A stretch of DNA of 64,000 nt, taken from IMG/VR virus record IMGVR_UViG_3300017989_000002. The stretch is one strand, 5' to 3'. The translations under genes were made by a program, and so were the position numbers. The DNA comes from a virus. This document shows, in pieces, positions 18,907 through 58,193 of the stretch. The notes beneath the pieces are model-generated. The model was not told the DNA's origin, ran no database searches, and saw only the letters and a program-made list of their open reading frames with translations. Each line of letters begins with the position of its first letter. Within the stretch, counting starts at the first letter, position 1.

Positions 18907-18935
18907 GAAGGAGGTGGGCACAATCGTCGCATAAG
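18907..18935 (+). promoter_or_regulatory. Candidate sigma28-like promoter of the replication operon (GAAG-N16-TCGCATAA)
   Basis: CGTCGCATAAG at 18925-18935 is identical to 56613-56623 and lies in the divergent intergenic region. Confidence 0.6.
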
Positions 18936-18977
18936 TAACACGTAGGCAGGCATTTCCGCGCTTGCCAGGAGGTGTGC

Positions 18978-19352
18978 ATGGGGAAGAACTTGTGGGAGGA
19001 GCTCGAAGCCAAGTCCGGCGGCGGGTCTCCTTCCTGGGGAACGAAGAAGGGGTCAAGCCCTTCGTACCGGGCGCCGACCGCCCCGTCGAGCAGCCGAGAA
19101 GCCGTCGTGGGCCGGAAGACCGACCCCGCGAAGACGGCGACCGGCGACCCGACGGACCGGCCGTACGCCTACGTCCAGAACCGACCAGACGGAACCATCG
19201 AGGAGTGGAGACCTCCGACGTTCTGGCAGATCGCGGCCGACATGGGCCTGCGAGCACTCGAGGCCGCGCTCGTCGGAGCGTTCTCCGAGCTGGCGCTGTA
19301 CTTCACTCGTCGCCGGTTCGTGCCCAAGCACCACTGGGACCGGCCGCAGTGA
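18978..19352 (+). CDS. Hypothetical protein
   Basis: ATG with AGGAGG RBS; first gene of the plus-strand operon. Confidence 0.7.
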   Translation: MGKNLWEELEAKSGGGSPSWGTKKGSSPSYRAPTAPSSSREAVVGRKTDPAKTATGDPTDRPYAYVQNRPDGTIEEWRPPTFWQIAADMGLRALEAALVGAFSELALYFTRRRFVPKHHWDRPQ

Positions 19353-19756
19353 AGGTCTACCTCCGCAAGCTCCGCAAGGGCCGACCGCAGTGGGCCTCCA
19401 TCTTGCGCCGACGACGCGGGAAGCTCGGACTGTCCTTCGACGAGGTTGGAGCCCTCGTGGGACGTACCGGGAGAGCCATCCGAGGCTACGAATCCGCCTA
19501 CCGGACACCGGATGTCCCCACCTACCTGCACCTCCTGGACGTCCTGGGTATCCGCGGTCAGTGGAGGGCCGAGGCCTTGGTGGCGTTCGCTCGCGCACGT
19601 CTTGGTGGACTCGACGTGCACGTCAACTCCCGCTCACCCGAGACCTACATCCGGGCGAGCATCCACGCTGCCGGTCTGACCGGCCAAGCCGCAGAGGACG
19701 CAGTCTCTTCGGTGCTGGAACAGCTACCTCTCTGCGATAGGCGAGATCGACGATGA
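19349..19756 (+). CDS. XRE-family helix-turn-helix regulator
   Basis: GTGA-coupled start; LRRRRGKLGLSFDEVGALVGRTGRAIRGYESAYRTP. Confidence 0.8.
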   Translation: MKVYLRKLRKGRPQWASILRRRRGKLGLSFDEVGALVGRTGRAIRGYESAYRTPDVPTYLHLLDVLGIRGQWRAEALVAFARARLGGLDVHVNSRSPETYIRASIHAAGLTGQAAEDAVSSVLEQLPLCDRRDRR

Positions 19757-21138
19757 ACCGAAGCAAGAAGGCGGGCGTGGCCTACCGCGGGGCGAGCCTC
19801 TGGCTCCCCAAGAGCCACGTGGGAGAGGAGGCCGTGAAGGGCTCCCTCTCGTTCCAGACGAAGAAGAGCTCCTCGCTGTTCGAGGCGTTCACCGAGACGC
19901 AGCATCACCTGGTGGTGCCGCGGCACTACATCCCGGTCGAGGACCTGGACGAGCTCGGCTGCGAGATCGTCTTCGACGACCCGCCCGAGTTCTTCCGCAT
20001 CCCCGGGTGGGTGAAGCCCACTCACGAGCTGCGGCGAGGCCTCGAGTTCGGGGAGGGGAAGACCAACCAGGTCGCCATGTGGAAGGCCCTCGTCGAGGGC
20101 GGCGACGGCGTCGGAGTCCTGAAGTGCGGCGGAGGCAAGACCGTCATCGGCATCCACGCGGCCCTCAGCGTGGGGTACGCGGCGATGTTCGTGGCCCACA
20201 ACGGCTCCCTGCTGGGGCAGTGGAAGGAGCGGCTCCTCGAGCACACGAACATCGATGAGGAGCACATCGGGATGATCGGCGACGGCACCCTGGACTGGGA
20301 GGGGAAGCCGTTCTGCATCGCGTCCATCCAGACGCTGTGGCAGGCCATCGAGGCCGGGCGCTTGCCCGAAGAGCTGCGGTGGCACTTCGGGACCGTGGTC
20401 TACGACGAGGTCCACCACATGGCGGCCGAGAAGTTCAACCTCGCGGCGGACCTGTGCCACGGCGTGCGGTGGGGCCTGACCGCGACTCCCGACCGCACCG
20501 ATGGTCTGGAGGGCCTCTACTCGGCCCACATCGGCCCCCAGCTCTACCGGGACCTCGAGCAGGACCTGACGCCTGGCGTGTTCTTCGTCCGTACGGGGCA
20601 GGAGCTCACGGGCGATCAGGAGGACGCCTCCAAGGACAAGCGCGGCGAGTTCAACATCGGGAAGTTCCACACGGCACTTCTCCGCGACCCGGCCCGAGAT
20701 CGCGTCATCGAGAAGTACGTGAACCTCGCGCTCAGCGACGACCACGAGGTCATGGTCCTCACCCCGAGCCGTGACCACCTGACAGATCTGTCGCACAAGT
20801 GGAAGGGAGACAACGTCTCGGTCATCCACGCCGGCGTGAAGCAGAAGGACCGGCCCGAGCTCGTCGACAACTGCAAGCTCCTGCTCGCCATCGAGGAGCT
20901 CGGCATCGAGGGTCTCGACAAGCCGATGCTCTCCGTCGTGGTCATCTCGGTGGCCATGAAGAACCGCAACGCCCTGCAGCAGATCATGGGCCGCATCCAG
21001 CGCGCCGTGGAAGGGAAGCCCGACCCGGTGGTCATCATCATCTTCGACGACAAGATCAAGCGCTGCCGCCGCTGGGCTGCCCGGATGCAGGCTTCCTTCA
21101 CCAGCTGGAACATCCCCTTCCGCATCATCGACGCATGA
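19753..21138 (+). CDS. Superfamily 2 DExH helicase (UvsW/XPB-like)
   Basis: CGGGKT, YDEVHH, GLTATPDRTDG, QIMGRIQR. Confidence 0.9.
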   Translation: MNRSKKAGVAYRGASLWLPKSHVGEEAVKGSLSFQTKKSSSLFEAFTETQHHLVVPRHYIPVEDLDELGCEIVFDDPPEFFRIPGWVKPTHELRRGLEFGEGKTNQVAMWKALVEGGDGVGVLKCGGGKTVIGIHAALSVGYAAMFVAHNGSLLGQWKERLLEHTNIDEEHIGMIGDGTLDWEGKPFCIASIQTLWQAIEAGRLPEELRWHFGTVVYDEVHHMAAEKFNLAADLCHGVRWGLTATPDRTDGLEGLYSAHIGPQLYRDLEQDLTPGVFFVRTGQELTGDQEDASKDKRGEFNIGKFHTALLRDPARDRVIEKYVNLALSDDHEVMVLTPSRDHLTDLSHKWKGDNVSVIHAGVKQKDRPELVDNCKLLLAIEELGIEGLDKPMLSVVVISVAMKNRNALQQIMGRIQRAVEGKPDPVVIIIFDDKIKRCRRWAARMQASFTSWNIPFRIIDA

Positions 21139-21148
21139 GGAGGACCCC

Positions 21149-21874
21149 ATGAGGTCACCAGAAGACAAGAACCTGCTCCTCGGGAGGCTGCACGACGCCT
21201 ACCGAGACTGCGAGCGCTGCCCGCTGGCCCGGCCTACCGGGCGGCGGCGCATGAACGTCGTGCTGGGGGAAGGCAACCCCGGCGCGCGCGTCATGATCGT
21301 GGGCGAGAGCCCCGGCTACTACTCGGACACCACCGGGCGTCCGATGATCGACGAGGACGGTACGGCCATCATCAACCCGCTCCTGGAGGGCATCAACAGC
21401 AGCCGCGACGAGGTCTTCATCACCACGCTCGTCTCGTGCCGCCCCACTGCCGAGGACAGGCCCAACCTCGACCGCGCACCCACGAAGGAGGAGATCCGAC
21501 TCTGCCAGGCGCGGCTCCACTCCCTCATCGACATCGTGGACCCCTACGTCATCATCACGATGGGCCAGGCCGCGATGAAGACGCTCACCGGCTGCAAGCG
21601 GACGCTGCTGCAGGTCGCTCGCGACAAGACGCTGCCGATGCTCTGGGCTGAGACGCCCGGCCACTTCGTACCGGTGAAGCGGACCGCCTACGCCACCTTC
21701 CACCCCGGGTACCTGCTGAAGCAGTTCCGGGACATGGGCGAGGACCGCTTCTACGCGCCCGGCTCCGACATGCACCACACCTTCCTCACCTTCCACCGCG
21801 CGTTCTCGGTCGCCGACCAGCACGCGTTCATGAACTACGGCACCCCACACCCCGACCGCGGAGGCACTTCGTGA
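21149..21874 (+). CDS. Family-4 uracil-DNA-glycosylase-like Fe-S protein (altered pocket)
   Basis: CERCPL, GEGNP, IVGESPG, SCRP, RLC, FHPGYLL. Confidence 0.85.
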   Translation: MRSPEDKNLLLGRLHDAYRDCERCPLARPTGRRRMNVVLGEGNPGARVMIVGESPGYYSDTTGRPMIDEDGTAIINPLLEGINSSRDEVFITTLVSCRPTAEDRPNLDRAPTKEEIRLCQARLHSLIDIVDPYVIITMGQAAMKTLTGCKRTLLQVARDKTLPMLWAETPGHFVPVKRTAYATFHPGYLLKQFRDMGEDRFYAPGSDMHHTFLTFHRAFSVADQHAFMNYGTPHPDRGGTS

Positions 21875-22533
21875 CCTACAAGATCAAGCTCGACCTCACC
21901 CGTGACAACTACACCGCCGACGAGATCGAGGCGGCCCTCCTCGAGCGCCTCAAGGCGAAGAAGCTCAAGAGCGAGGAGCGCGACCTCCTCGTCGAGTACG
22001 CCTTCGACGTGCAGGACTCCGACGACGACGAGCTCGCCGCCGTGAAGCGCAAGCTGCAGGACGCAGTCAAGGCCGTGACCGACAACACCGCGAAGGCCGA
22101 GGCGGCCGAGAAGCGGCTGCGCGAGATCAACCAGCAGGCGTTCGAGTACATCGACGGCGTCGACACCGACCTCGCGGACATCGACGACGAGATCAAGCAG
22201 TTCCTGCTCCGGCAGACGTTCTCGGAGCGCAAGGGCGCCTACGAGTTCAAGTCGCACGGCTTCCGCGTCGCGCGGTCCCGCACCAACAAGGTCGCGGTCA
22301 CCTACGCCGGCGAGGAGGTGCTGGAAGCCCGGCCCGACCTCAAGGACGTCGAGGTGGACGGCGATCGGCTGTTCCGCCTGGTCATCAACGAGGGCCTCGC
22401 CGACCGCCTGCTCGAGGACGACGAGACGCCCGAGGACGTGCGCGAGCTGTTGAAGGCCCACCGCAAGGAGACCTTCAAGCGCAACCCCAGCATCAAGTTC
22501 GCCGTCGCGGACGGGGACGGTTCCGATGTCTGA
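21871..22533 (+). CDS. Hypothetical coiled-coil protein (Gam/Gp157-like architecture, unconfirmed)
   Basis: Long coiled coil followed by a short beta region; strong codon bias. Confidence 0.65.
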   Translation: MTYKIKLDLTRDNYTADEIEAALLERLKAKKLKSEERDLLVEYAFDVQDSDDDELAAVKRKLQDAVKAVTDNTAKAEAAEKRLREINQQAFEYIDGVDTDLADIDDEIKQFLLRQTFSERKGAYEFKSHGFRVARSRTNKVAVTYAGEEVLEARPDLKDVEVDGDRLFRLVINEGLADRLLEDDETPEDVRELLKAHRKETFKRNPSIKFAVADGDGSDV

Positions 22534-22867
22534 GGAGACCGTCATCGCCGAGGCCGACCGGCGCGGGGGCCAGCAGCGCGACATGAAGACCCGTGCCCTG
22601 ATGCCCGACCCCGAGGGCGCGAAGCCCGGAGCCGCGCGCGTCACCATCTCCCGCAAGATCGGCTGGTCGTCCGGCTTCGGGCGCGAGAAGGCGGATGTGG
22701 TGGTGGCGGTGGAGGTTCCGTGTGGTACCTCCACCGAGGCCATCCACCGGGCCATGGACCGTGCCAGCGCGTTGGTCGATGAGCGGCTCCCCCAGGAGCT
22801 CGACGACATGATCAACAAGTACTTCGAGGGCGGCCCCATCACCTTCGGGAACGGAGGTGGTGGATGA
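22526..22867 (+). CDS. Hypothetical protein
   Basis: Overlapping coupled ORF. Confidence 0.65.
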   Translation: MSEETVIAEADRRGGQQRDMKTRALMPDPEGAKPGAARVTISRKIGWSSGFGREKADVVVAVEVPCGTSTEAIHRAMDRASALVDERLPQELDDMINKYFEGGPITFGNGGGG

Positions 22868-23160
22868 AGGACGTACCCGCGGGCGGCATCGTCCGGTGCG
22901 TCTGCGTCAAGGTGGAGGGGTCGACGACCGGGTTGGCCGCGACCCTCCACCTGTACGCGAGCAACGGCGCCCACGTGGGGGAGACCAGGCTGGCTGGCTT
23001 CTCCGAAGAGACCGTGTCCCTGCTGACCCAGCTTCGGGAGAGCATCGAGGGCGACTTTGTCGAGTTCCTGGGGGGCTCGGCACAGCCGTCCGAAGCCTCT
23101 CCCTTCGACATCCAACTGCCCCCAGAGAACGGACCCCGCTCGTTCGGGCCGAACTCCTAG
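22864..23160 (+). CDS. Hypothetical protein
   Basis: ATGA-coupled, GGAGG RBS. Confidence 0.55.
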   Translation: MKDVPAGGIVRCVCVKVEGSTTGLAATLHLYASNGAHVGETRLAGFSEETVSLLTQLRESIEGDFVEFLGGSAQPSEASPFDIQLPPENGPRSFGPNS

Positions 23161-23176
23161 ACGCTCCGAGGCCCTC

Positions 23177-24529
23177 ATGAACTACGACATGGCGTTGATC
23201 TCCCACGTCATCGAGAACCGCAACCTGCAAGACGTCATCCAGCTTGGCCTCACCTCCGACATGCTGAACGAAGAGGCCAAGGCGTACTGGGACTTCCTCC
23301 ACGCGCACTACGCCAAGTTCCATGAGGTGCCGAGCGTCCGGTACTTCCAGGACCACTTCCCGGGGTACGAGCACGACGTGACGTCGGACGGGCTGCCCGC
23401 CATCGTCCACAACATCAAGAGCCTGCTGCTGGCTCACGAGCTGGACGACACGGCACGGAAGGTGGCCGAGCTCGCGATGCAAGACCCCTGGGCGGCCAAA
23501 CAGCTGCTCATGTCGAACGTGTCCGACATCGCGGCACGGCACCAGCAGGAGGACACCGACCTGCTCGCGGGCGACAACATCGACGAGGTGATGACCCTCA
23601 TCCAGAAGGTCAAGGAGACGGGCGGCCTGCTGGGGTACCCCTGGCCGTGGGACCTGTTCAACAGGCACACGCCAGGCCTCTGCGGCGGACACTTCGTCTA
23701 CATCTACGGCCCCGAGAAGAGCAAGAAGTCCTGGCTGCTCACCTTCCTCATCGACTTCTTCGAGGACCTGGGGCTCCGGCTCTCGGTGCACAACCGAGAG
23801 ATGAGCAACCAGGAGTTCAGCCTCCGCCTCTACTGCATGCGCGCCCAGCTCGACTACGGGCGCTGCATCACCGAAGGCAAGATCACGCCGCAGGAGGAGC
23901 ACCGCCTCCGCCTCGTGATCCAGGGCTTCAAGTCGCGCGGCCGCATCCTCTTCACGAACGTCGAGGAGGGCATCACCGGCGTCCAAGCGAAGATGGAGCA
24001 GCACCGTCCGCACATCATCATCCACGACTACATGAAGGCGCTCGCCGACGACGCGATGGCGGGCGCGAAGTCCAACGCTGGGAAGGACCACGCCTTCGTG
24101 GCCAAGGCCGCCGACCACCTGGCGTCCTACTCCAAGCAGAAGGACATCCCCATCATCGCGGTCGGCCACACCAACGCCGATGAGGCGAAGCTGCAAGGCC
24201 GGAGCACGCAGGACGCTGCGCACTCCAAGCACATCGCCCGCCGCCTCGACTACATGTTCCGCGTGGTCAACGACGAGTACCACAACCGCATCGCCCTCAT
24301 CTTGGTTGCAGGCCGTCATGCCAGGAAGTTCCTGGGCCTGACGATGAGCGGCTCCATCTGCAACGGCTTCGGCCACATGATCGAGGAGAACGCGACCTGG
24401 GTGAAGGACTTCGACGTCCTCACGCAAGGCGAAGACGAAGCGAAGAAGGGCAAGCCCAAGGTCGAAGGGTCCGGGGTGAAGGCCAAGATCTCGGCGGCAT
24501 CGTTCGCCACAAGTGCGAGGCGCTCATGA
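23177..24529 (+). CDS. DnaB-like (SF4) replicative helicase, divergent
   Basis: Start MNYDMAL. GYPWPW, YIYGPEKSKKS (Walker A variant), NREMS, IIHDYM; directly upstream of the primase. Confidence 0.8.
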   Translation: MNYDMALISHVIENRNLQDVIQLGLTSDMLNEEAKAYWDFLHAHYAKFHEVPSVRYFQDHFPGYEHDVTSDGLPAIVHNIKSLLLAHELDDTARKVAELAMQDPWAAKQLLMSNVSDIAARHQQEDTDLLAGDNIDEVMTLIQKVKETGGLLGYPWPWDLFNRHTPGLCGGHFVYIYGPEKSKKSWLLTFLIDFFEDLGLRLSVHNREMSNQEFSLRLYCMRAQLDYGRCITEGKITPQEEHRLRLVIQGFKSRGRILFTNVEEGITGVQAKMEQHRPHIIIHDYMKALADDAMAGAKSNAGKDHAFVAKAADHLASYSKQKDIPIIAVGHTNADEAKLQGRSTQDAAHSKHIARRLDYMFRVVNDEYHNRIALILVAGRHARKFLGLTMSGSICNGFGHMIEENATWVKDFDVLTQGEDEAKKGKPKVEGSGVKAKISAASFATSARRS

Positions 24530-25644
24530 GTGAACCGCTCGAACTGTACCGTCCGTACGTCGAGAACATCCAGGAGAGCGGCGACACCCACTACCGAGGC
24601 ACCTGCCCTTGCCCACGCAAGAGCAAGCGCTCCTTCCACTTCCACAAGGACACGGGGTACTACGGCTGCTGGTCGTGCGATGACCACGGCTCGCTGTACA
24701 AGTTCCTCACGTCCAAGGGCATGGACGTCGGCCGAGCGAAGAGCATCTCGCAGGAGGTCCGCGACAGCGCGCCCTCCGAGGTGATCCAGCTCAAGCGCAA
24801 GCAGGCCGCGGCAGTGGCCCGGAACGACATCCTCCCCGACTACGTGCTGGCCGAGTTCCACAACTGCCCGGTGGCGCTGCTCGAAGCAGGGTTCCCTGAG
24901 CAGCTGCTCGAGCGGTACGACGTCGGGTTCGACGTGGCGCGGCAGCGCATCACGTTCGGGATCCGGGACAAGGAGGGGAACCTGGTGGGGGTCAGTGGAC
25001 GTGCCGCCCTCGCCGACCAGGTGCCCAAGTACAAGGTGTACGACGCCAGGCCAGCGGAGCCTCACAGGAACAGGCCGGAGGGGGCGCTGAGGCAGTACAA
25101 GGAGGACTACGTCCCCCGCAACAAGGCGCACCTGTACGGGGCTCATACGTTCTGGGGACTTCGGTCGCATAAGAGGCTGGACGGAGAGGTTCCGATTCCT
25201 GTCGTCATCACGGAGGGGTACAAGTCGACCCTCTGGATGCGGCACCTGGACTTCCAGTACTCGGTCGGCCTTCAAGGCTCGCTCATGACGCGCGAGCAGA
25301 TGGCCGTCCTCCTGGAGCTCGGGGGTCCCTTCGTTGTCCTGCTCGACTACGAGCCGGGGAAGCAGTTCCCCGACCCCGACCAGATGAAGAAGAGGGCGAA
25401 GCTGCTCCTGAACAAGCAGTTCCGGGAAGCGGACAGAACCCGTCCATGTGACGCAGTACAGATTGCTCTGTGGCTGCAGCGCAAGGGAGCGTCCGCCCTC
25501 ATCGGCAAGTACCCGCCCGACAGTCCCGTCGGCACCGCACCAGACGACCTGGCCAAGGACCAGCTCACCTACGCAATCGAGAACGCAGCAACACCCACCA
25601 GCGTCGTCCTTGACGGCGCACGACACGCGAGAACAGGAGGCTGA
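24526..25644 (+). CDS. DnaG-like primase (Zn finger plus TOPRIM)
   Basis: GTCPC...SFHF...GCWSCDDHG, RITFGIRDKEGNLVGVSGR, HLYG, VITEGYK, LLDYE, PDDL. Confidence 0.85.
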   Translation: MSEPLELYRPYVENIQESGDTHYRGTCPCPRKSKRSFHFHKDTGYYGCWSCDDHGSLYKFLTSKGMDVGRAKSISQEVRDSAPSEVIQLKRKQAAAVARNDILPDYVLAEFHNCPVALLEAGFPEQLLERYDVGFDVARQRITFGIRDKEGNLVGVSGRAALADQVPKYKVYDARPAEPHRNRPEGALRQYKEDYVPRNKAHLYGAHTFWGLRSHKRLDGEVPIPVVITEGYKSTLWMRHLDFQYSVGLQGSLMTREQMAVLLELGGPFVVLLDYEPGKQFPDPDQMKKRAKLLLNKQFREADRTRPCDAVQIALWLQRKGASALIGKYPPDSPVGTAPDDLAKDQLTYAIENAATPTSVVLDGARHARTGG

Positions 25645-25645
25645 G

Positions 25646-26869
25646 ATGGCCGGATGGAGTGACTACCGGCAGCGCACCGCTGCCAACATGCGAAGCAAGA
25701 GCAAGCGGAGGTACCCGCCCTGGCAGGCCGGCGTCCTCATGGTGAACGCCGGCGAGGAGTTCCAGGTCGCCCTGGTCGACATGCCGCCGCACCCGCGGCC
25801 GCACCACTGGACCCGCTTCCCGCACGAGTGCACGGCGTCCAACCCCCTCTTCGAGGGCAAGTGCGTCTTCTGCTTCGACGCGGCCGAGAAGGACGCGGAC
25901 AACGAGAAGCTGGAGGCGAAGGGACTCGACCCCGAGCAGTACAAGCACTGGCTGCGCGACGGCCTCGTGCTGCCGGTCGTCGACTACCGGATGCACCACT
26001 TCGTGCCGGACCCGAAGAAGGACGGCAAGTTCATGGTCGCGGCGTGCGCGTACCCGGACAAGGACATCCCCAAGGGCGCCCCGACCGGCATGTGCTCGCA
26101 CTGCAACCACAAGGACCCCTACGTCGCCGAGCGTCGGTTCCTGGGGATGCGGCGCTGGGAGGTCGGGACGACCAGCGAGCTGTGGAACATCATCATCGCC
26201 GCCGACCGCCGGGCGAACCAGGTCTGCATGCACGAGTACAAGGACGGGTCCATCTGCCGCGGGAAGAACTTCCTCACGCAGATCATCTGCCCCGAGTGCG
26301 GCACGGAGTTCATGAACTCCGAGCAGATCCACGCGGACGCGCAGGGCGCTGCGGAGCTCGCCGAGAAGGTCGTGTCCTGCACGAGCTGTGACTGGAAGGG
26401 CAAGCCGTACAGCGCGTACACCTGCATGAACGCGGTGAAGCGCGGCACCGACGACTGTGCCGAGCACATGGCCAGGCCGGGCACGCTGGCCGACGGCGTG
26501 GTGAACATCACCTGCCGCGGCGAGACGCGTCAGGGCGGACAGGTGGTGCGGAAGTACACGGTGGACGCGGTGCTGACCGAGGACAAGGTCGGGCGCCTGG
26601 TGGAGGGCTTCGGGTACGACCCCGATGCCGCCAAGGCCTTGCTGTCCGGCAAGGACATCGACCTCGACCGTCAGTACCTGCCCGAGCGCAAGAACCCCGA
26701 CGACGACGCGTTCAACAAGAACGGCGCGTTCAACAAGGAGGAGTACGTCAAGGCGGTCCTGCAGGCGCAGGCCGAGGACCTCGGCATCAACAACCCCTAC
26801 GTGGCGGGCGGCGGCTCCCACGTTCCCTTCGGCGGCAAGTCGCGCTCCTACGAGGGGGCGCGGGACTGA
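25646..26869 (+). CDS. Multi-zinc-finger protein, putative gp32-like ssDNA-binding protein
   Basis: AGGAGG RBS; HHW..HEC..CVFC, CSHC, CPECG, CTSC; follows the primase; strong codon bias. Confidence 0.6.
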   Translation: MAGWSDYRQRTAANMRSKSKRRYPPWQAGVLMVNAGEEFQVALVDMPPHPRPHHWTRFPHECTASNPLFEGKCVFCFDAAEKDADNEKLEAKGLDPEQYKHWLRDGLVLPVVDYRMHHFVPDPKKDGKFMVAACAYPDKDIPKGAPTGMCSHCNHKDPYVAERRFLGMRRWEVGTTSELWNIIIAADRRANQVCMHEYKDGSICRGKNFLTQIICPECGTEFMNSEQIHADAQGAAELAEKVVSCTSCDWKGKPYSAYTCMNAVKRGTDDCAEHMARPGTLADGVVNITCRGETRQGGQVVRKYTVDAVLTEDKVGRLVEGFGYDPDAAKALLSGKDIDLDRQYLPERKNPDDDAFNKNGAFNKEEYVKAVLQAQAEDLGINNPYVAGGGSHVPFGGKSRSYEGARD

Positions 26870-26887
26870 CCCGCCTCCCTTCATCTC

Positions 26888-26916
26888 GGCGGCCGGGGAC
26901 ACTCTCCCCGGCCGCC
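26888..26916 (+). terminator. Perfect 12-bp hairpin (attenuator or mRNA stabiliser) after the putative SSB
   Basis: GGCGGCCGGGGA-cactc-TCCCCGGCCGCC; no U-tract. Confidence 0.6.
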
Positions 26917-26930
26917 CCAGGAGCGACCTC

Positions 26931-28130
26931 ATGTTCACGATCGACATCCAGCGCAGCCTCATCCAGAACGGCGACGCCATCATCAAGTGCGAAGACGACA
27001 TGCTGTACTTCGGCGGCTCCAACTGGCTCCTCGCCTCCCCCATCCCGGCCACCGACATCATCCCGGCGCAGACGGCCGAGTTCCTCAAGGCGTTCTTCAC
27101 CGACCACCCCACCCGCGGCGCGGACATGGCCGTTCTGACCGCGGACCCGAAGTCGTTCGTCCGCCACGAGACCGGCCACAGCCACGAGTACCTGTTCCAG
27201 CCCGTCGGCGGCTTCCGCCCCACGGAGCTCTCGAACCACGCCTGGCACACCAAGGCCAGCAGCCCTCGCATGAACATCGAGACGGCCTCGCCGTCCCTGT
27301 TCGCGCCCGACCTCGTCGACCTCACCGCTCTGTGGAAGTCCGGCGACGTTCAGCCCTTCTACGGCGAGGCGGACGAGACCCGAAGTCTGAGCAAGCACCA
27401 GGCCGAGACCTTCCTCTTCCGGTTCAAGGCGCCCAGCGGACTGCAGCGCCTCGTGCACGTCGAGGCCGGTCCCTGGAAGGCGCTGCACGCTCTGGGTCTC
27501 CGGGCCTACGTGCCTGCCGACCAGCCGCACGCCGGGATCCCGCCCATCGGGTTCCGTCATGCCGACGACCCCAGCAAGCTGTTCGGCTTCCTCGAGCAGG
27601 TGACGCTGCCGACGACGCACTCCGATGACGGGCGGGACATGCTGTACAGCCCGCTGTCCTGCAGCTGGGCGACCGAGGAGTGGCTGCTCCGCGAGCTGGC
27701 AAAGCACCACGACGTGCGCCTCGACCAGCCGGCGCTCGTCAGCCTGGACCAGATCCTCGAGGCATCCAAGGCAGGCCCCTCCTGCGGCATCATCCCGCGC
27801 CGCTTCCGCGCCGCCGTCGACGTCCTGCGGTGGCGTGGCGTGAGCGAGGAGGAGATCTCCTCGTGGTTCGAGGAGAAGCTGCCTGGCGTCTACTACGAGA
27901 TGGCGCGGGGCGCGGCCAAGACGGCGCTCGACGTCGCCGACAGCCGCTTCCGCTACGTGACGGCGGGGATGCGGGACAACGAGGCGCGCACGAGCATCAT
28001 GCGCACACGCGACGAGCTCGAGCGGTGGTGGGGTTGGATGCCCTACGCAGCAGGTCAGCAGGTCATCAACGACGCCGTGAGCCTCCTCGACCAGAAGCTG
28101 GACGAGGCCCCCGGCGAGCCCACCGAGTAG
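26931..28130 (+). CDS. Hypothetical protein
   Basis: ATG at 26931 with AGGAG RBS. Confidence 0.65.
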   Translation: MFTIDIQRSLIQNGDAIIKCEDDMLYFGGSNWLLASPIPATDIIPAQTAEFLKAFFTDHPTRGADMAVLTADPKSFVRHETGHSHEYLFQPVGGFRPTELSNHAWHTKASSPRMNIETASPSLFAPDLVDLTALWKSGDVQPFYGEADETRSLSKHQAETFLFRFKAPSGLQRLVHVEAGPWKALHALGLRAYVPADQPHAGIPPIGFRHADDPSKLFGFLEQVTLPTTHSDDGRDMLYSPLSCSWATEEWLLRELAKHHDVRLDQPALVSLDQILEASKAGPSCGIIPRRFRAAVDVLRWRGVSEEEISSWFEEKLPGVYYEMARGAAKTALDVADSRFRYVTAGMRDNEARTSIMRTRDELERWWGWMPYAAGQQVINDAVSLLDQKLDEAPGEPTE

Positions 28131-28140
28131 GAGGCACCAC

Positions 28141-30135
28141 ATGAGGTTCATCGAAGACGTGCCGCCCGTGATCGAAGTGGGCGAGCACAACCTGGACGAG
28201 GTGTTCGAGCGGTGCTGGTACTACGACCAGATGGTCGGCCTGGATACCGAGACCCTCGGCAAGGGGCACCTCAAGACCGACGACCAGATCATCTGCATGA
28301 GCCTCTGCCCGGATGCGGAGGCCCGGTACTACGTGCCGCGGCCTCTCATCCGCCGCTTCCAGCCCCTGCTGGAGCGCGAGGACATCACGTGGGCCATCTT
28401 CAACGCCAAGTTCGACGTCCACCGCTTCGCCAACATGGGCATCCATGTCGGGGGGCGGTGGGCGGACGGCAATGTCCTCGACTGGTTGTTCGATGAGGAC
28501 CTCCGCGAGAACCGGCACGGCCTCAAGGAGTGCAGCGACGACTACCTCGGCATCCCGACCCACAGCTTCAAGCACCTGTTCGGCCGGGACAACATGGTGG
28601 ACGTCGCTACGCCAGGACACCCCAAGTACGAGCTCTTCGTCGACTACGCCGCGCTCGATGCCTGGCTGCACCGCGAGTGCTGCCTCCTGCTGTTGGACAA
28701 GCTCTCCGACCTCGTGAAGTGGCACGACAAGCCCGACGAGACCCTCATGTACCAGTACTGGTACGAGGAGGAGCCGCAGCTGCAGACGCTGTACAAGATG
28801 GAGCGCCGCGGCCTGGACACCGACGCAGGCCTCTTCGCCGCGATGCGCAAGAGGGTCGAGGCCGACATGGCCGTGGTCGCTGCTCGCATCAACTCGAAGC
28901 TGGGACGGCCCTTCAACCCGAACAGCACGCCGCAGAAGCAGGAGCTCCTGTACGCAGACCCGCCGCGCGGCCTCGGGCTGCCCGTGAAGCGCAAGACCAA
29001 GTCCGGCAACGGAGGGTCCACCGACGCGAAGACGATGGAGATGTACGCCGGCATGGGCGTCGAGGTCTGCCAGGACCTCGTGGAGTGGTCCGAGCTCGCG
29101 AAGCTCGAGGGCTACGTCAAGGGCCTACCGAAGCACATCTCCAAGAACACGGGACGCATCCACACCAAGTTCAGCCCCATCAAGGTGACCGGACGACTGT
29201 CCAGCGCCGAGCCGAACCTGCAGAACATCCCGCGGAAGGACAACGACAAGTACGGCATCCGAGGACTCCTCGTCGCACCGACCGACATGGGCGAGGAGTA
29301 CGTGCTCATCGTCGCCGACTACGCCCAGCTGGAGATGCGGGTGTTGGCCGACATCAGCGGCGACGAGACGATGATCAAGGGCATCATCGACGGCCTCGAC
29401 ATGCACTCGTACACGGCCGCCAACATGAACGAGATGGACTACGACGAGTTCGTGGCCCACGTGAAGGAGGGCAAGGCCAAGGAGAAGCTGCAGGCCGAGC
29501 TCCGAGACAGCGGCGTCCACGAGAACGACTACCCGGGAGAGGCGCGTCTCCTCGAGCGCGAGGTCTGGGCCATGGGCATGCGGACAGCAGCCAAGGCCAT
29601 CGGCTTCGGCATCGTCTACGGCATCACCGAGCACGGCCTGGCCGTTCAGCTCACCGAAGCCCTCGGACGTCCGGTCTCCAAGGAAGAGGCCCTGTCGATG
29701 ATCGAGATGTACCTGGACACCTTCCCCGGCGTCCGTGGCTACATGGAGACCACGAAGAAGACGGCGCGTCGCAGAGGGCGCGTGCAGACCTACCGTGGCC
29801 GCTTCCGTCGTCTGTCCAAGGCCAAGTCCCACCGCATGAGCGAGGTCCGTCGCGCTCTGCGCCAGGCCATCAACGCGCGCATCCAGGGCAGTGCCCACGA
29901 CATCGTGAAGCGCGCGATGCTGTACTGCGAGTTCGACTCGTACCTCCGGGTCGACCTCAAGGCCGAGATGGTGCTGCAGGTGCACGACGAGCTCATCTGG
30001 CGGTGTCCGCGGCGTACGGCCGACGAGGCCGTCGAGATCATCCAGCACCACATGGAGCACCCGTTCAAGAACCCCCTCCGCGTGCCTCTCATCGCGGAGC
30101 CGTCCATCGTGACCCGATGGTCGGATGCCAAGTGA
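28141..30135 (+). CDS. polA: Family A DNA polymerase with 3'-5' exonuclease, no 5'-3' exonuclease
   Basis: GLDTET, FNAKFD, YAALDA; TGRLSS..PNLQNIP; DYAQLEMR; RTAAKAIGFGIVYG; QVHDEL. Confidence 0.95.
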   Translation: MRFIEDVPPVIEVGEHNLDEVFERCWYYDQMVGLDTETLGKGHLKTDDQIICMSLCPDAEARYYVPRPLIRRFQPLLEREDITWAIFNAKFDVHRFANMGIHVGGRWADGNVLDWLFDEDLRENRHGLKECSDDYLGIPTHSFKHLFGRDNMVDVATPGHPKYELFVDYAALDAWLHRECCLLLLDKLSDLVKWHDKPDETLMYQYWYEEEPQLQTLYKMERRGLDTDAGLFAAMRKRVEADMAVVAARINSKLGRPFNPNSTPQKQELLYADPPRGLGLPVKRKTKSGNGGSTDAKTMEMYAGMGVEVCQDLVEWSELAKLEGYVKGLPKHISKNTGRIHTKFSPIKVTGRLSSAEPNLQNIPRKDNDKYGIRGLLVAPTDMGEEYVLIVADYAQLEMRVLADISGDETMIKGIIDGLDMHSYTAANMNEMDYDEFVAHVKEGKAKEKLQAELRDSGVHENDYPGEARLLEREVWAMGMRTAAKAIGFGIVYGITEHGLAVQLTEALGRPVSKEEALSMIEMYLDTFPGVRGYMETTKKTARRRGRVQTYRGRFRRLSKAKSHRMSEVRRALRQAINARIQGSAHDIVKRAMLYCEFDSYLRVDLKAEMVLQVHDELIWRCPRRTADEAVEIIQHHMEHPFKNPLRVPLIAEPSIVTRWSDAK

Positions 30136-30149
30136 CCCAGGAGACCAGC

Positions 30150-30332
30150 ATGGCTGACATGGAGAAGTACGGCGTCGTCGACACCGAGCAGGAGAAGACG
30201 GCGGCCTCGAAGGCGAAGAAGCAGATCGAGAAGGCTGGCGCCAAGCGCGCCGGGCCGGGTGCTGTTCCGGACGCGGACGCGTTCAAGAACAAGCTCGGCA
30301 AGCCGCCCACCAAGAAGCCCAAGGAGGACTGA
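30150..30332 (+). CDS. Small basic protein (MEKYGV...EKTAA)
   Basis: AGGAG RBS; fills the gap between pol and recA. Confidence 0.6.
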
Positions 30333-30333
30333 C

Positions 30334-31407
30334 ATGGCCGCCCGCAAGACCCCAGAGCATGCCTTCGAGTTCGGAGCCTCCAAGAAGGAGCGCGACGCCC
30401 ACATCAAGAAGCTCATCAAGGACTCGAAGCAGGACCTCGCGGTCCTGGGGAAGATGCCCATCCGAGACGTCACGGTGATCCCGACCGGGAGCATCCGGCT
30501 GGACGTCGGGCTGGGCATCGGCGGGTGGCCCATCCACCGGGTCGTCGAGATCTTCGGAGCGGAGGGCTCGGGCAAGACCACCCTCGCCCTCCAGGCCGCG
30601 GCGAACTGCCAGAAGATGGGCGGCATCGTGGCCTTCGTCGACGCCGAGCACGCGCTCAACGTGGAGTACGCCAAGGACCTCGGCTGCGACCTGGACGAGA
30701 TGCTCATCAAGCAGCCCGACAACGGCGAGCAGGCGATGGAGGTCGTCCTCGAGCTCGTGCCCAAGGTCAACCTCATCGTTGTCGACAGCGTGGCGGCGCT
30801 CACACCCAAGGCCGAGCTCGAGGGAGACATCGGAGACCACCACCCTGGCGCGCAGGCGCGGCTCATGTCGCAGAGCCTCCGCAAGATCACGGCAGCCATC
30901 GGCAGGAGCCAGTGCTGCGTCATCTTCCTCAACCAGACGCGGCAGAAGATCGGCGTGAAGTTCGGCTCTCCGAAGACCACGTCGGGAGGCAACGCCCTGA
31001 AGTTCTACGCCTCCATCCGGTGCGAGGTCGTCCGCATCGGGAACGTGAAGGAGGGGGACATCACCGTCGGACAGCGCGACAAGGTGACCGTCCTGAAGAA
31101 CAAGCTGTCCCCTCCCTACCGAGTCGTGGAGTTCGACCTCATCTTCGGGGAAGGCACCTCCATCCTCGGAGAGTGCATCGACATCGGGCTGGAGATCGGG
31201 GCGCTCGACCGGAGCGGCTCCTGGTACAGCTTCGGCGACGTCTCGGTGCTCGGAACCGAGCTCTCGGCCATCGCAGGGAGTCGCATCGGACAGGGTCGCG
31301 TGCACGCGAAGCACACCCTCAAGAAGCACCCCGAGTTCATCGACCGCATGCGCGAAATCGCGCTGCGTGAGCTGCGCACCAGCCGCGCAGACCCCGAAGA
31401 CGACTGA
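30334..31407 (+). CDS. recA: RecA recombinase
   Basis: [67 protein letters not shown]. Confidence 0.97.
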
Positions 31408-31415
31408 GGTGACTG

Positions 31416-32030
31416 ATGGACTTGCCGCCCGGCGTCTACCGCAAGGTTCGGTGCCGCCACTGCTGCGTGAAGGGGACCGTGACCGTCCACGACGACGGGC
31501 GCGTGACCGAGAACCACAAGCACCGGGGCTGGTGCAAGCACGCTCCGGTGCAGCCCGAGCACTTCAAGAAGCGGAGGAAGCGCGTCCAGCGCCAGGAGGT
31601 CGACCTCGCCGAGGCTGCCGCCGGCCTGGTGCGTCTGACCCCCGCCTCGGGAGCCCTGAACGCCGACAACGACGCCCGCATGGTCGGCGGATGGCGCTTC
31701 GAGGCCAAGAGCACGGAGAAGGAACGCTGGGTGGTGACGCCCAAGTTCTGGTCCACGCTCTGCGAGCGCGGCCTCCGCAACGACGAGGAGCCGATGCTCG
31801 TCGTCGACTTCCTCACCCAGAACAGCTCGACGGAGCGCCTGTCCCTCATCCGCCGCGCGGCGTGGGACGGCGACGTCGGGGCTCCTCTCGAGACGACGGA
31901 CCCGTTGGCTCGAACCACCTACCACATGAAGCCTCTGCCGCGTGAGCCTCGCGCGGTGCCGGGCCTCGAGCCTCCCGCCGTCGTGCTCCCGTTCGACACG
32001 TGGCTCCAGCTCTTCAAGGACTCCCAGTGA
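31416..32030 (+). CDS. PD-(D/E)xK nuclease, Holliday-junction-resolvase-like
   Basis: RLTPASGA..ND...FEAKST; N-terminal CRHC..H..C metal-binding segment. Confidence 0.7.
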   Translation: MDLPPGVYRKVRCRHCCVKGTVTVHDDGRVTENHKHRGWCKHAPVQPEHFKKRRKRVQRQEVDLAEAAAGLVRLTPASGALNADNDARMVGGWRFEAKSTEKERWVVTPKFWSTLCERGLRNDEEPMLVVDFLTQNSSTERLSLIRRAAWDGDVGAPLETTDPLARTTYHMKPLPREPRAVPGLEPPAVVLPFDTWLQLFKDSQ

Positions 32031-33337
32031 AGAACTACTCCAAGCACATCTACGATGCCGCGGTCGGGCACGCTCCGGCCCCGACCGTCCACGAGCTGAT
32101 GACCCGAGATCCTCGAGACCTCGGAGCCGAGCTCGCGGACACGATCCTGCCCACCACCGCGTTCCGCCGCCTCTGCCATGCCGAAATGCGGCCCGTCCTC
32201 GCCACGTGGCTGCGTGCCCACTTCGGGCTGAAGATGACCGACGCGCCGACGATGGTGATGCACGGCCTGGACATGACGGGCCACGGGATCCTCGAGACCG
32301 AGCACGGCCGCTACCTGGTCGACTCCGTGATGATCCCGCTCAAGGGCTGGAACGACGGCATCCTGCAGCAGGCCGTGGCAAGCGCGGCGCTGGTGAAGGC
32401 CCACGCCACCGGCTGCTGCGACGGGGCGTACGTCCTGGTCGTCAACCAGAACAGCCTCAAGTGGGCGCTGTGGGAGGTCGAGGTCCCTCGGCCCAGCTAC
32501 CTCGAGAAGCTGTTCGCCCAGTTCCGGGAGCGTGCGGCGGCCTACGAGGAGGCCTACGAGGGTCACCGCAGGGACCGGGCTCCTGGCGTGGAAGGCTACC
32601 CGGTGGTCTCCACGCGGCACGTGACCGACGAGCAGCGCATGGCGTCCATCGTCAAGGAGCTCGCCCTCGTGGAGAGCGCGAAGCGCCGGGGAGGAGTCAT
32701 CAGCCCCTCCGAGGTCAGCATCACATCATGCGACCGACGCATCGCCTACGCGCTGAAGAAGACGCCCAAGGTGGACCGGTTCCCGACCCACCTGTACCGG
32801 GTGTTCGCCTACGGCACCGCCATCCACAACCTCACCCAGAGGCTCCTGCTCGACGCTCTGCCCGACCTGGTCGACGAGATGACGGTCGAGAACAAGAGCC
32901 TGCGCATCTACGGCAGCGCCGACGTCGGGGACCTAGCCGACATGGTGATGCTCGAGATCAAGAGCATGTCCACCCACCAGCACAAGAAGCTCCGCTCGCC
33001 GAAGAGCGACCACTGCGTCCAGGCCACCATCTACGCCCGGGCCGGGTCGCTCATCTTCAAGGTGGTCATCTACCTGTACGTGGACAAGGAGCTCTACACC
33101 ATCAAGGAGCTCCCCACGAAGGCTGACAGCTCGGAGTGGCACCGCATCGCCTCGCGCTGCAAGGGCATCAACGAGACGCTCAAGGCCGGCGACATGCCGC
33201 CTCGAACAGACAAGACGAGCGAGTGCGACAACTGCCCCGTCGCCTACGTCTGCAAGCCCGATGAGTTCGGCCACCTCGCCCCGGTGTCCCGAGTCATCAC
33301 CGCATCCCAGAAACGCCGCATGAGGAGGCCCGCATGA
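32027..33337 (+). CDS. Cas4/AddB-like PD-(D/E)xK exonuclease with degenerate N-terminal duplicate
   Basis: SPS..CDR, GTAIH, GSAD, LEIKS, QATIY, CDNCPVAYVC. Confidence 0.85.
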   Translation: MKNYSKHIYDAAVGHAPAPTVHELMTRDPRDLGAELADTILPTTAFRRLCHAEMRPVLATWLRAHFGLKMTDAPTMVMHGLDMTGHGILETEHGRYLVDSVMIPLKGWNDGILQQAVASAALVKAHATGCCDGAYVLVVNQNSLKWALWEVEVPRPSYLEKLFAQFRERAAAYEEAYEGHRRDRAPGVEGYPVVSTRHVTDEQRMASIVKELALVESAKRRGGVISPSEVSITSCDRRIAYALKKTPKVDRFPTHLYRVFAYGTAIHNLTQRLLLDALPDLVDEMTVENKSLRIYGSADVGDLADMVMLEIKSMSTHQHKKLRSPKSDHCVQATIYARAGSLIFKVVIYLYVDKELYTIKELPTKADSSEWHRIASRCKGINETLKAGDMPPRTDKTSECDNCPVAYVCKPDEFGHLAPVSRVITASQKRRMRRPA

Positions 33338-33960
33338 GCGAGATCCCCAAGGGAACGAGCCTCGACGTCGACGAGATCCTGGACCGCTACTCCAACATCA
33401 TGGAGATGGTCGAGCAGGAGCTCCATGACGCCGGAGTCCAGACCACCCCAGTACCTCCGAGCCTGTCGGGCGACCTGGAGGGGTACGTCACCTACGACGA
33501 CTCCTCCGGAGCGCCGCTGACGCCCAACGACCTGACCGAGTTCAGCCCGGTCATCCTGGGCAAGTTGGCGTCGTACTGGGGCGCCTGGACCAACTACTAC
33601 GAGACCCTGCTGTCTGCGGGCGAGGCGCGGGTCGACATCCTCGACGAGAAGACCAAGGTCATCAAGTCGGCGCTCACGCTCTACTACCGGGAGGACCACA
33701 ACCTCCCTGTCGACCTCATCAGCGACAAGGTCACCACCGACAACCGCTACGCCGAGTGGGTGAAGGAGCTCAACAAGGCGAAGCAGTTCAAGCGTGGGGT
33801 GATGCGCCAGCACGCCGCCTTCAAGCGCACCGGCAACCAGCTCAGCCGGGAGCAGACGCGCCGGAAGGACGAGATGGAGCGACACGGTGTCGGAGGGGGC
33901 TACAACCCCGGCAAGGGACCGCGCCCAGGGCCCAAGGCCGGCAGCTGGGGGAGGGACTGA
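33334..33960 (+). CDS. Helical protein (possible UvsY-like recombination mediator)
   Basis: Coiled-coil ORF inside the recombination cluster; function inferred from context only. Confidence 0.55.
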   Translation: MSEIPKGTSLDVDEILDRYSNIMEMVEQELHDAGVQTTPVPPSLSGDLEGYVTYDDSSGAPLTPNDLTEFSPVILGKLASYWGAWTNYYETLLSAGEARVDILDEKTKVIKSALTLYYREDHNLPVDLISDKVTTDNRYAEWVKELNKAKQFKRGVMRQHAAFKRTGNQLSREQTRRKDEMERHGVGGGYNPGKGPRPGPKAGSWGRD

Positions 33961-56575: not shown

Positions 56576-56588
56576 TCTACCCTATCGC
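56576..56588 (-). promoter_or_regulatory. Candidate -10 element GCGATAGGGTAGA
   Basis: Matches 15220-15232. Confidence 0.55.
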
Positions 56589-56594
56589 ACGCCG

Positions 56595-56623
56595 TGAAAC
56601 CGTGCCCTGCGGCGTCGCATAAG
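56595..56623 (+). promoter_or_regulatory. Candidate sigma28-like promoter TGAAA-N13-CGTCGCATAAG
   Basis: Same spacing as 58165-58193; -10 box identical to 18925-18935. Confidence 0.65.
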
Positions 56624-56630
56624 GGCTTGG

Positions 56631-56770
56631 TGGAGAGGGCCCCTCGGCGTCCCCCACCGAGCGGCAGGAGGTTGGTCTCTCTGCCCTCCGAGGTTCTCCA
56701 TTGACCGCGGCCCTGGAGGCCCGAGCGCGCAGCTCGGGCCTCCAGGTGTCGCACCTCGTGCTTCTTCGCT
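56631..56770 (+). ncRNA. Candidate structured small RNA
   Basis: Bounded by the plus-strand promoter motif and the hairpin+CTTCTTCGCT signal. TGGAGAG/TTCTCCA closing stem and inner GGCAG/CTGCC hairpin; no convincing ORF. Confidence 0.45.
56712..56770 (+). terminator. Perfect 15-bp hairpin plus CTTCTTCGCT
   Basis: CCTGGAGGCCCGAGC-gcgca-GCTCGGGCCTCCAGG, 14 nt, CTTCTTCGCT. Confidence 0.7.
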
Positions 56771-57407
56771 ACGAGACGACGACGCCGAAGGCCGCGGGAA
56801 GCGTGGGGTCCGGCAGGCTGATGTGCTCCAGGACCTCCCCCTCGCTGGTCTGGTTCGTCCCGACGAAGCCCTGGTCGATGGCCGTGACCTCGAGGGACGC
56901 CGCACCCACGCTCTCGGCACACAGGCCGGAGGTCCCGTGCAGAGCCACCGCCTCGTCGTCAGAGGCCACGGTCGCGTACTGTGGAGGGATCTCCGCCTCC
57001 GTCCCATCCGACATCTCGGCCACCAGGTCGAGAACGGCGACCTCGCCGACGTCCAGGAGGAGGGGGTCGTCCCCGTCGTACCGCACCACCTTGACGTAGG
57101 GGAACAGCCAGTCGATGAGGACGGCCTCGTCCTGGGCCGGGACCGTACGACGGAGCGTGATGTCCGAGCGGAACGGGTGGTCGATCTGCACCGTCGCGCC
57201 TTGGATGAGCTGGAAGGCCACGAGGCCGCTCCCGTCGCTCGTCGCCTCGACTCCCTGTCCCGTGACCCAGTTCATGGCGTCCGTCGTCATCGGAACCTCG
57301 AGGTTCCGGATGCGGAGAGGGATCCCCACGCGCGGGCGGCCGCTCACGTCCAGCAGGTAGCCGGCGATGGTGCAGAGGGCGGGAGGTACGGGGTCGGGAA
57401 GGGGCAT
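56769..57407 (-). CDS. Structural protein, beta-sandwich plus Ig-like (Big) domain; paralog of 59946..60245
   Basis: CTIAGYLLD...SDGSGLVAFQLIQG...VPAQD; C-terminal ASDDEAVA...AESVGAASLEV. Confidence 0.7.
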   Translation of the reverse strand: MPLPDPVPPALCTIAGYLLDVSGRPRVGIPLRIRNLEVPMTTDAMNWVTGQGVEATSDGSGLVAFQLIQGATVQIDHPFRSDITLRRTVPAQDEAVLIDWLFPYVKVVRYDGDDPLLLDVGEVAVLDLVAEMSDGTEAEIPPQYATVASDDEAVALHGTSGLCAESVGAASLEVTAIDQGFVGTNQTSEGEVLEHISLPDPTLPAAFGVVVS

Positions 57408-58129
57408 CAGGTCTTGACCTTGGCGAGAGCCCCCGAGGGCGAGGAAGACACGAGCTTTGGCGGCTTCGGGGCCTTGATCTTCGTGGTCCCGAAGCTGCCC
57501 ACGGACGCCTTGGGTAGAGTGGGCGGCTTCATCTTGACCTTGAAGGAGGGCGTCTTCGGCTTCGCCAGGGGCTTGAGCAGCTTCAGGGCCATCTTCGCGG
57601 CACCCGCCTGCTTGGACATGCCCTGCCGGCGGTAGAACTGGCCTCTGGCGGTGTTGTCCGGGTGAGGGCCCAGCACCCGACGGGTCTGACGGTCCACCAT
57701 CGCGCTCTGGCCGCCGAAGACGTGCCTCGCGCGGGACGCCCGGGCGGCCTCGATGGCGTCCACGAGGTGCTGCGACGGGACGTGGGTCACGCCGGCAGCG
57801 ACCTCGGGCTTGCCCAGCCCGAACATGCGAGACAGGACCTTCGCGTCAGCAAGGTCCGCTCGGCGAGCCATGACCTCTCGGCCCCGGCCTCCCCCCACCG
57901 CGGCAGTGCCGCCGAGCGCCGCCCCCAGCGCAGCGCCCCGGAGCATGCGCCCGATGCGCTCACGAACTTCGGGGCGCGTGAGGTTCCGGCCCTGGACCTG
58001 CCCTGTGTGGTCGCGCCAGAACTGCTCCTCCGAGGGCTCGTAGGTGGCGGCGCCCGTAGCGGCCCCGGCGGCCGCCCCTGGGGCAGCACCGAGAAGGAAC
58101 TCGAGGGCTCGGGCAGCCGCTGGCTTCAT
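57407..58129 (-). CDS. Basic Gly-zipper putative internal virion protein (MSKQAG)
   Basis: GGAGG RBS; GAAPGAAAGAATG and GAALGAALGG; Lys/Pro-rich tail after MSKQA. Confidence 0.65.
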   Translation of the reverse strand: MKPAAARALEFLLGAAPGAAAGAATGAATYEPSEEQFWRDHTGQVQGRNLTRPEVRERIGRMLRGAALGAALGGTAAVGGGRGREVMARRADLADAKVLSRMFGLGKPEVAAGVTHVPSQHLVDAIEAARASRARHVFGGQSAMVDRQTRRVLGPHPDNTARGQFYRRQGMSKQAGAAKMALKLLKPLAKPKTPSFKVKMKPPTLPKASVGSFGTTKIKAPKPPKLVSSSPSGALAKVKT

Positions 58130-58164
58130 GGGCAGACCTCCGTCGGGATACTAGCGTGGGAGGA

Positions 58165-58193
58165 TGAAATCCGCGAGACGAGCGGCGCACAAG
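58165..58193 (+). promoter_or_regulatory. Candidate sigma28-like promoter TGAAA-N13-CGGCGCACAAG
   Basis: Same spacing as 56595-56623; the downstream AGCTTG also resembles GGCTTG. Confidence 0.55.

Follow-up and report, generated by a model that had tools for sequence, protein, structure and literature searches.

Promoter classes that depend on a phage-encoded sigma-family protein are known from Bacillus phage SPO1 (gp28, gp33/34) and from T4 (gp55, with its late promoter TATAAATA); these proteins redirect the core enzyme of the host and mostly switch on middle or late genes. Among bacterial alternative sigma factors, those of the FliA/WhiG/SigD (sigma-28) group recognise the consensus TAAA-N15-GCCGATAA. 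Jumbo phages of the phiKZ/AR9 type have virion-packaged multisubunit polymerases with early promoters of their own (PMC7598289, PMC5312081), and the RNA polymerase-encoding phages of group 1 (PhiKZ-type) have no sigma factor (PMC7824862). The stretch analysed here, called the window below (64,000 nucleotides (nt) of the IMG/VR virus record IMGVR_UViG_3300017989_000002, 67% G+C), encodes both a fused beta-beta' RNA polymerase and a sigma-70-family protein, and it carries a short recurring motif with the core CGCAYAAG. This motif is probably the -10-type core of a phage-specific promoter class, with the phage sigma and the fused polymerase as its most likely readers. That it is a promoter is strongly supported by its position, its orientation, its two-block form, its conservation and the presence of the same core in three other phages; its link to the phage-encoded sigma is plausible.

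The motif and its distribution along the contig

The initial annotation of the window had listed an 11-mer, CGTCGCATAAG, at 18925-18935 and again at 56613-56623, a variant, CGGCGCACAAG, at 58183-58193, and a TGAAA (56595-56599 and 58165-58169) exactly 13 nt 5' of the second and third of these sites. Our scan of both strands reproduced each of these positions, all on the plus strand (sites 1 to 3 in Table 1), as well as the GAAG-N16 arrangement described for the first site: site 1 is without a TGAAA box, and 16 nt separate its GAAG (18907-18910) from TCGCATAA. ATAA, which the annotation had called rare, has 5 copies on the two strands of the window, three of them intergenic, where base composition predicts about 92. 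The core itself occurs six times in the window, always on the plus strand, and three of these copies fall within the 1.9% of the sequence that is non-coding (p = 1e-4). The site 1 core is separated by 42 nt from the ATG at 18978 of a replication operon, and the site 3 core by 23 nt from an ATG at 58217, with an AGGAGG ribosome-binding site in between in both cases; the divergent gaps that hold the two sites measure 83 and 87 nt, respectively.

ENA contig k141_711587 (174,625 bp) contains the window at 100% identity; a rightward walk along it gave 118.8 kb in window coordinates, and it is over this length that the motif was counted. CGCAYAAG is found 14 times, with 11 copies in the 2.8% of non-coding DNA, and an unbiased test of all 8-mers returned CGCATAAG as the word most enriched between genes (10 of its 11 copies intergenic, p = 9e-16). 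Of the 11 intergenic CGCAYAAG copies, ten point towards a gene start that follows at 17-49 nt, again with a ribosome-binding site between the two. Nine of 15 plus-strand unit starts have the motif upstream, as against 1 of 24 minus-strand starts and no virion-block gene. The enrichment upstream of plus-strand units is thus seen beyond the window, and the annotated position at the start of such units stands for sites 1 and 3; it does not for site 2, which lies between minus-strand genes.

Alignment of the intergenic copies gave the consensus gTCGCATAAG-G-a-CTTGGAG. Half of the six TGAAA words present in 237 kb (both strands) lie exactly 16 nt upstream of a core, and GAAA-N15-TCGCATAA is found at 56596, 58166 and 98533. 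GAAA therefore stands at the right offset in 3 of the 11 copies, and CAAA in one more (TGCAAAT). In the three copies with the order xTGAAA, 18 nt, CATAAG, the two boxes are within the 16-18 nt spacing range of the sigma-70 family. Position 2 of the putative -10 is invariably A, and position 6 is G in all 11 copies, not the T of the sigma-70-family hexamer. A/T runs are strongly avoided in this DNA (39 copies of GAAA and the six of TGAAA over the same 237 kb), so that the few existing copies of such words carry much information.

Two copies stand back to back, 30 nt apart, in the merged interval 98515-98560 (L008 20866-20911), where they head divergent units; the minus-strand copy occupies 98515-98522, the plus-strand copy 98553-98560, and the TGAAA of the latter lies between them. 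A 116-residue protein behind the 98553 copy was considered as a sigma region-4 protein and set aside as unsupported (Pfam E = 0.12).

Two homologous gaps are covered by a close relative (run SRR12358675), with identities of 69% for its sigma and 51% for the flanking protein. The 20-nt block of site 1 is identical at 20 of 20 positions in this relative (L046), and the remaining aligned stretch is only about half identical. At the place homologous to site 3 (L024), the relative has TGAAATC-N15-CGCATGAG, with TGAAATC and CGCA..AG kept at the same spacing and the spacer diverged. Three further contigs (L021, L026 and L028, with sigmas 80%, 63% and 42% identical) did not reach a homologous promoter region. 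A word CACATAAG in L047 was rejected as a motif copy, as that contig ends inside the flanking gene and the word is coding sequence. A distant IMG/VR relative has exact CGCAYAAG only within genes, and its most enriched word forms an iteron cluster and not a promoter. Scans of metagenome contigs with the helicase found no relative and with the 18-nt motif only 17 unrelated chance matches; an exact-sequence scan and a sigma scan of a viral contig collection gave no match. An Rfam search of the window and a scan for the sigma-70 consensus around sites 2 and 3 were likewise without a match.

Table 1. Motif sites and other features of the window (positions in window coordinates)
Feature	Position	Strand	Basis
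Site 1: conserved block ATCGTCGCATAAGTAACACG, core CGCATAAG	18922..18941 (core 18928-18935)	+	sequence read, alignment with relative L046
Site 2: TGAAA, 16 nt, CGCATAAG	TGAAA 56595-56599; core 56616-56623	+	sequence read
Site 3: TGAAA, 16 nt, CGCACAAG	TGAAA 58165-58169; core 58186-58193	+	sequence read
Sigma-70-family protein, 261 residues, candidate reader of the motif	60451..61236	-	NCBIfam, PHROG, profile against PDB
Fused beta-beta' RNA polymerase, 2067 residues, within virion block	8999..15202	-	tblastn, IMG/VR relative
Replication operon headed by site 1	18978..36069	+	gene model, Pfam
Single lipoprotein-like gene headed by site 3	58217..58915	+	N-terminus reads as signal peptide with Cys
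TAGNNT-type boxes	15223-15228, 56579-56584, 58148-58153; also before gene starts 41420 and 49174	-	sequence read
24-codon GTG frame, beginning 7 nt past the site 2 core at the expected transcript start	56630..56704	+	sequence read
Perfect 15-bp hairpin	56712..56746, extendable to about 56707-56751		fold of 56630-56775

The phage sigma factor and the same core in other phages

The candidate reader contains sigma regions 2 to 4 and is encoded inside the minus-strand morphogenesis block. The initial annotation had placed it in the FliA class, an assignment that we could not uphold. Its end-to-end alignments with NCBIfam models (SigBFG 8e-10, FliA_WhiG 2e-8, RpoD C-terminus 9e-8) all score far below the cut-offs and within 7 bits of each other; FliA_WhiG reaches 34 bits against a cut-off of 190, no better than SigBFG, the extracytoplasmic function (ECF) sigmas or RpoD. 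PHROG 351 (sigma) matches with 6e-11. A profile of the sigma family was built from nine homologues, the only ones in a set of 5.8 billion proteins and all on short contigs. Compared with the PDB, it gave RpoS at 1e-9 and SigA/RpoD at 1e-6 to 1e-4, ahead of FliA at 8e-4. These profiles place the phage sigma nearer to RpoS/RpoD than to FliA. In the ESM Atlas it has viral clusters as its closest neighbours, and its best match in a cultured phage is gp10 of Arash (22% identity, 2e-11), followed by proteins of the Vibrio phages D69, D181 and D148.

All four of these cultured phages also carry a homologue of the polymerase: tblastn matched the fused protein to the RNA polymerase genes of D69, D181 and D148 (99% coverage) and of Arash. 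Purified Arash virions contain the sigma gp10 and both polymerase subunits, in a study that includes no promoter analysis (PMC10585845).

The same gene caller and word-enrichment test were run on other genomes. In Arash (53% GC), GGTATAAG is intergenic in 24 of 31 copies (p = 3.5e-17) and TGGTATAAG in 15 of 18; all motif copies are on the strand of the non-structural region, and a comparison of five sites with GenBank put the motif 12-24 nt 5' of an annotated gene or tRNA in four of them. In Vibrio phage D69 (45% GC), 18 of 19 copies of GTTATAAG and all 13 of TGTTATAAG are intergenic, and TATAAG is enriched at p = 1e-15 as against p = 0.05 for TATAAT. The IMG/VR contig G001 (49% GC), whose polymerase and sigma are 32% and 26% identical to those described here, has about 8-10 copies of CGCAAAAC-N13-TGG[CT]ATAAG. 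YATAAG is the core shared by the leading intergenic motifs of Arash and D69, and G001 contains it too; all three genomes encode homologues of the sigma and the polymerase. In the control Streptomyces phage BRock, YATAAG is not enriched. The final base of the motif is G in all four phages, and the forms that end in T (TNGYATAAT and YATAAT) are missing from these genomes or show hardly any enrichment in them.

The motifs of the four phages are alike in more than the core. That of Arash (TGGTATAAG) and that of D69 (TGTTATAAG) have (C/T)ATAAG often followed by TAA, a continuation also seen at site 1; they stand 12-60 nt before gene starts, are biased to the strand of the non-structural region, and occur together with a homologous sigma and polymerase. 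TCGCATAAG in the present phage and TGGCATAAG in G001 differ by one base. The flanks, in contrast, track the base composition of each genome (TCGC in the present phage), and the upstream box differs, being TGAAA here, CGCAAAAC in G001 and CCAATAA-like in Arash, between sigmas that are 22-26% identical.

A few other features of these genomes were observed. A copy of TGGTATAAG lies 12 nt 5' of the annotated tRNA-Asn gene of Arash (OQ632216.1, 59089-59095, minus strand), and this class of promoter may drive phage tRNA genes too. Arash also has five identical repeats of about 60 nt (near 26740, 66487, 100243, 138590 and 173364 of OQ632216.1), each with the palindrome CTTATATAAG in its middle, GTTGTAACC words on either side and the TATAAG core on both strands. 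G001 (IMGVR_UViG_3300025674_000019) contains about 20 palindromic copies of TACTTTCCGGAAAGTA (or ...AAAATA) in about 1 kb at 62.9-64.1 kb (loci L016/L017), an iteron-like array that perhaps marks a replication origin.

Gene context, a second box and the region downstream of site 2

Minus-strand virion blocks occupy 3-18894, 36101-58129 and 58972 onwards. Between the first two lies the plus-strand operon headed by site 1, which encodes a 124-residue orphan, a helix-turn-helix (HTH) protein, a helicase, a UDG-family protein, a DnaB-like ATPase, a primase, a family A DNA polymerase (PolA), RecA and a PD-(D/E)XK nuclease. PHROGs gave no function for the first genes downstream of the motif copies.

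The virion genes are preceded by promoter-like words of another kind: TAGGGT, TAGTAT, TAGCCT or TACGAT stands 15-22 nt 5' of minus-strand virion gene starts. The polymerase gene is one of them, with TAGGGT upstream and not the CATAAG motif. The close relative has TAGGCT at the place matching the TAGNNT-type box (L024). These words fit the TAnnnT expected at -10 for high-GC primary sigmas.

The gap that holds site 2 is 210 nt long and separates the start of the minus-strand gene 52659-56558 from the end of the minus-strand gene 56769-57407. The frame that begins at the expected transcript start (Table 1) could be a leaderless mini-open reading frame (mini-ORF) or part of a small RNA, both being candidates. 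The segment 56630-56775 folds at -84.2 kcal/mol (z = -5.3) and contains the 15-bp hairpin, which would terminate a plus-strand transcript of about 120 nt and which also comes after the stop of the minus-strand gene 56769-57407. Site 2 may yield a short, structured RNA or else a transcript that carries a mini-ORF, in either case antisense to the end of a virion operon. On the minus strand, CGAAGAAG directly follows the stops of two genes (56759-56768 and 58964-58971), and in both cases about 15 nt separate it from a strong hairpin (56712-56746 and 58924-58946); the word and hairpin together look like a shared 3'-end module.

Readers of the motif and comparison with known promoter systems

In its fullest form the promoter would read TGAAA(Y)-N15-TCGCATAAG-GaCTTGGAG, with CATAAG in the place of the -10 hexamer and, at a distance of 18 nt on its 5' side, TGAAA as a -35 box that need not be present. 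The first transcribed base would lie about 7 nt past the final G, and the class would drive the non-structural operons, comprising replication, nucleotide metabolism and small orphan genes. The reader would be the 261-residue sigma, a member of the Arash gp10 family, together with the fused beta-beta' polymerase; we infer this enzyme, the transcript start positions and the timing from the sequence. Two observations bear on the placing of the motif at -10. At the copy at 86772 the ribosome-binding site starts 6 nt past the motif and the ATG stands at 17 nt, which leaves no room for a separate -10 and points to the motif itself; transcription must then begin no more than a few bases away, and the geometry is compatible with the 5-9 nt that separate -10 and transcript start in sigma-70-family promoters. 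The TAGNNT boxes, furthermore, lie as far from gene starts as CATAAG does in its close copies, which again supports the motif as a -10.

The genes for the sigma and the polymerase lie in virion blocks without the motif, and this, together with the presence of their Arash homologues in the virion, makes it plausible that the holoenzyme is delivered with the DNA. Going one step further, (C/T)ATAAG may represent the early promoters of a virion-delivered holoenzyme made of a multisubunit-type phage polymerase, here a single fused beta-beta' chain, and the phage sigma-70-family protein, a proposal that we make tentatively and hold to be possible rather than probable. If it is true, this lineage (the present phage, Arash, the D69-like Vibrio phages and uncultured relatives) would start its non-structural programme without the host polymerase, using a sigma of bacterial style with a -10 pocket that favours G in the position for which the primary sigmas of cells require T.

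Several points speak against a promoter class read by the phage holoenzyme. Seven of the 11 intergenic copies have no clear -35 box and look -10-only, and site 2 heads no called plus-strand gene. The census covers 118.8 of 174.6 kb, and its gene model comes from our own codon-bias caller, which is crude (functions were taken from Pfam). The pattern common to the four genomes was partly defined after they had been viewed, and the combined form TNGYATAAG failed in D69, with 13 matches as against 24 in the control, and what carries over to that phage is the YATAAG core alone. It is from co-occurrence in four phages that the link to the sigma is drawn. The sigma gene, finally, belongs to a block that looks late, so that the sigma would have to be either packaged in the virion or produced ahead of the genes under its proposed control.

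The alternative that survives best, improbable as we consider it, is that the motif is an unusual extended -10 for the primary sigma of the host (sigma-70/SigA), possibly assisted by a phage activator such as one of the HTH proteins. TCGCATAAG, TGGTATAAG and TGTTATAAG do resemble TGnTATAAT, the 18 nt between xTGAAA and CATAAG suit sigma-70, and a related specificity would be expected in any case from a phage sigma that itself resembles RpoS/RpoD. Primary sigmas conserve no -10 base more strongly than the final T, whereas every copy in all four phages ends in G; the near absence of the T-ending forms from these genomes argues in the same direction. A separate class of boxes, TAGNNT, stands before structural genes, moreover, and fits the -10 of a primary sigma in high-GC DNA.

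We regard it as quite unlikely that the motif is an operator for a phage DNA-binding regulator, or an RNA-level element in 5' leaders, even though HTH genes do lie in or beside motif-headed units (19349-19756; a 75-residue HTH_17 protein) and the conserved block continues beyond the core (GaCTTGGAG or TAACACG). A dimeric operator is hard to square with the asymmetry and the strict orientation of the motif, and the spread of 17-49 nt in its distance from the start codon is ill-suited to a translational one. An upstream box accompanies it at a fixed distance, the divergent gaps of 83-87 nt offer no other promoter candidate for the plus-strand genes, and the phages that have the motif share no obvious regulator beyond the sigma and the polymerase.

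That the host reads the motif as a promoter, through FliA or another sigma-28-type or alternative sigma, is highly unlikely. The parallel between GAAA-N15-TCGCATAA and TAAA-N15-GCCGATAA, in which an A-rich -35 is paired with a long -10 ending in ATAA, is what speaks for it. However, TCGCATAA agrees with GCCGATAA at only 5 of 8 positions, with GCA replacing the CGA core, and GAAA is present in only 3-4 of the 11 copies. YATAAG is, furthermore, found in phages of Salmonella and Vibrio and in G001, following TGG or TGT and not GCCG, and a single host-specific alternative sigma cannot account for its occurrence across such different phages. An ECF-type promoter (TGAAAC ... CGTC) was also considered and rejected, its spacing being 12 nt, not 16-17. 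Chance recurrence of a rare word, with which the number of 11-mers with up to two mismatches in the window would be compatible (20 found against 13.6 expected, not significant when compared with shuffles), is refuted by the intergenic enrichment, the fixed TGAAA offset and the block conserved in the relative.

The phage-specific promoter that we favour can be set beside the described systems. The likeness to sigma-28 promoters drawn in the initial annotation holds for the geometry, as both have two blocks, in which 15 nt separate an A-rich -35 word from a long -10 where ATAA comes after GC-rich bases. It breaks down at the -10, which here is TCGCATAAG, with GCA for the CGA core and an invariant G after ATAA, at the -35, which is optional, and at the class of the encoded sigma; the motifs of the sister phages (TGGTATAA and TGTTATAA) have TGG or TGT before TATAAG. 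The motif therefore resembles a flagellar sigma-28 promoter only superficially. Across the four phages it appears to read more naturally as an extended -10 ending in G: T(C/G)(G/T)-(C/T)ATAAG aligns with TGn-TATAAT, an 18-nt spacer separates it from xTGAAA, and its distance from the start codon is that of the TAGNNT boxes of the same phage. It differs from the extended -10 in its final base, always G and not T, and in its first base, which is C in the present phage.

With the sigma-dependent classes of SPO1 and T4 it shares a phage-encoded sigma-family protein and a phage-wide, non-host promoter word that heads one class of genes. The present phage differs from both in that it also encodes the catalytic enzyme, in that the motif heads non-structural genes, and in that the genes around its sigma gene are virion genes. 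As a kind of element, phage-specific promoters are familiar; here, one would serve a bacterial-type polymerase of the phage together with the phage's own sigma. The recurrence of (C/T)ATAAG in four phages that differ widely in host and base composition amounts to a concrete rule, which is testable in the cultured phages Arash (Salmonella) and D69 (Vibrio) and usable for annotating operons and temporal classes in hundreds of uncultured relatives. It also raises the structural question of how a sigma-70-family protein prefers G at the last -10 position.

The phages of phiKZ/AR9 type come close in other respects, since they too combine a phage beta/beta'-type polymerase with a phage-specific, AT-rich word before early genes, and since the polymerase of the relative Arash is likewise found in the virion (PMC10585845). 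Our literature search found no paper that describes the motif in this promoter sense, and as the polymerase-encoding PhiKZ-type (group 1) phages have no sigma (PMC7824862), the pairing of a phage polymerase with its own sigma, and the promoter that goes with it, appear to be undescribed so far. What would set the present lineage apart from the phiKZ/AR9 type is precisely this partnership of the polymerase with a sigma-70-family protein, and with it the bacterial-style -35/-10 layout of the promoter.

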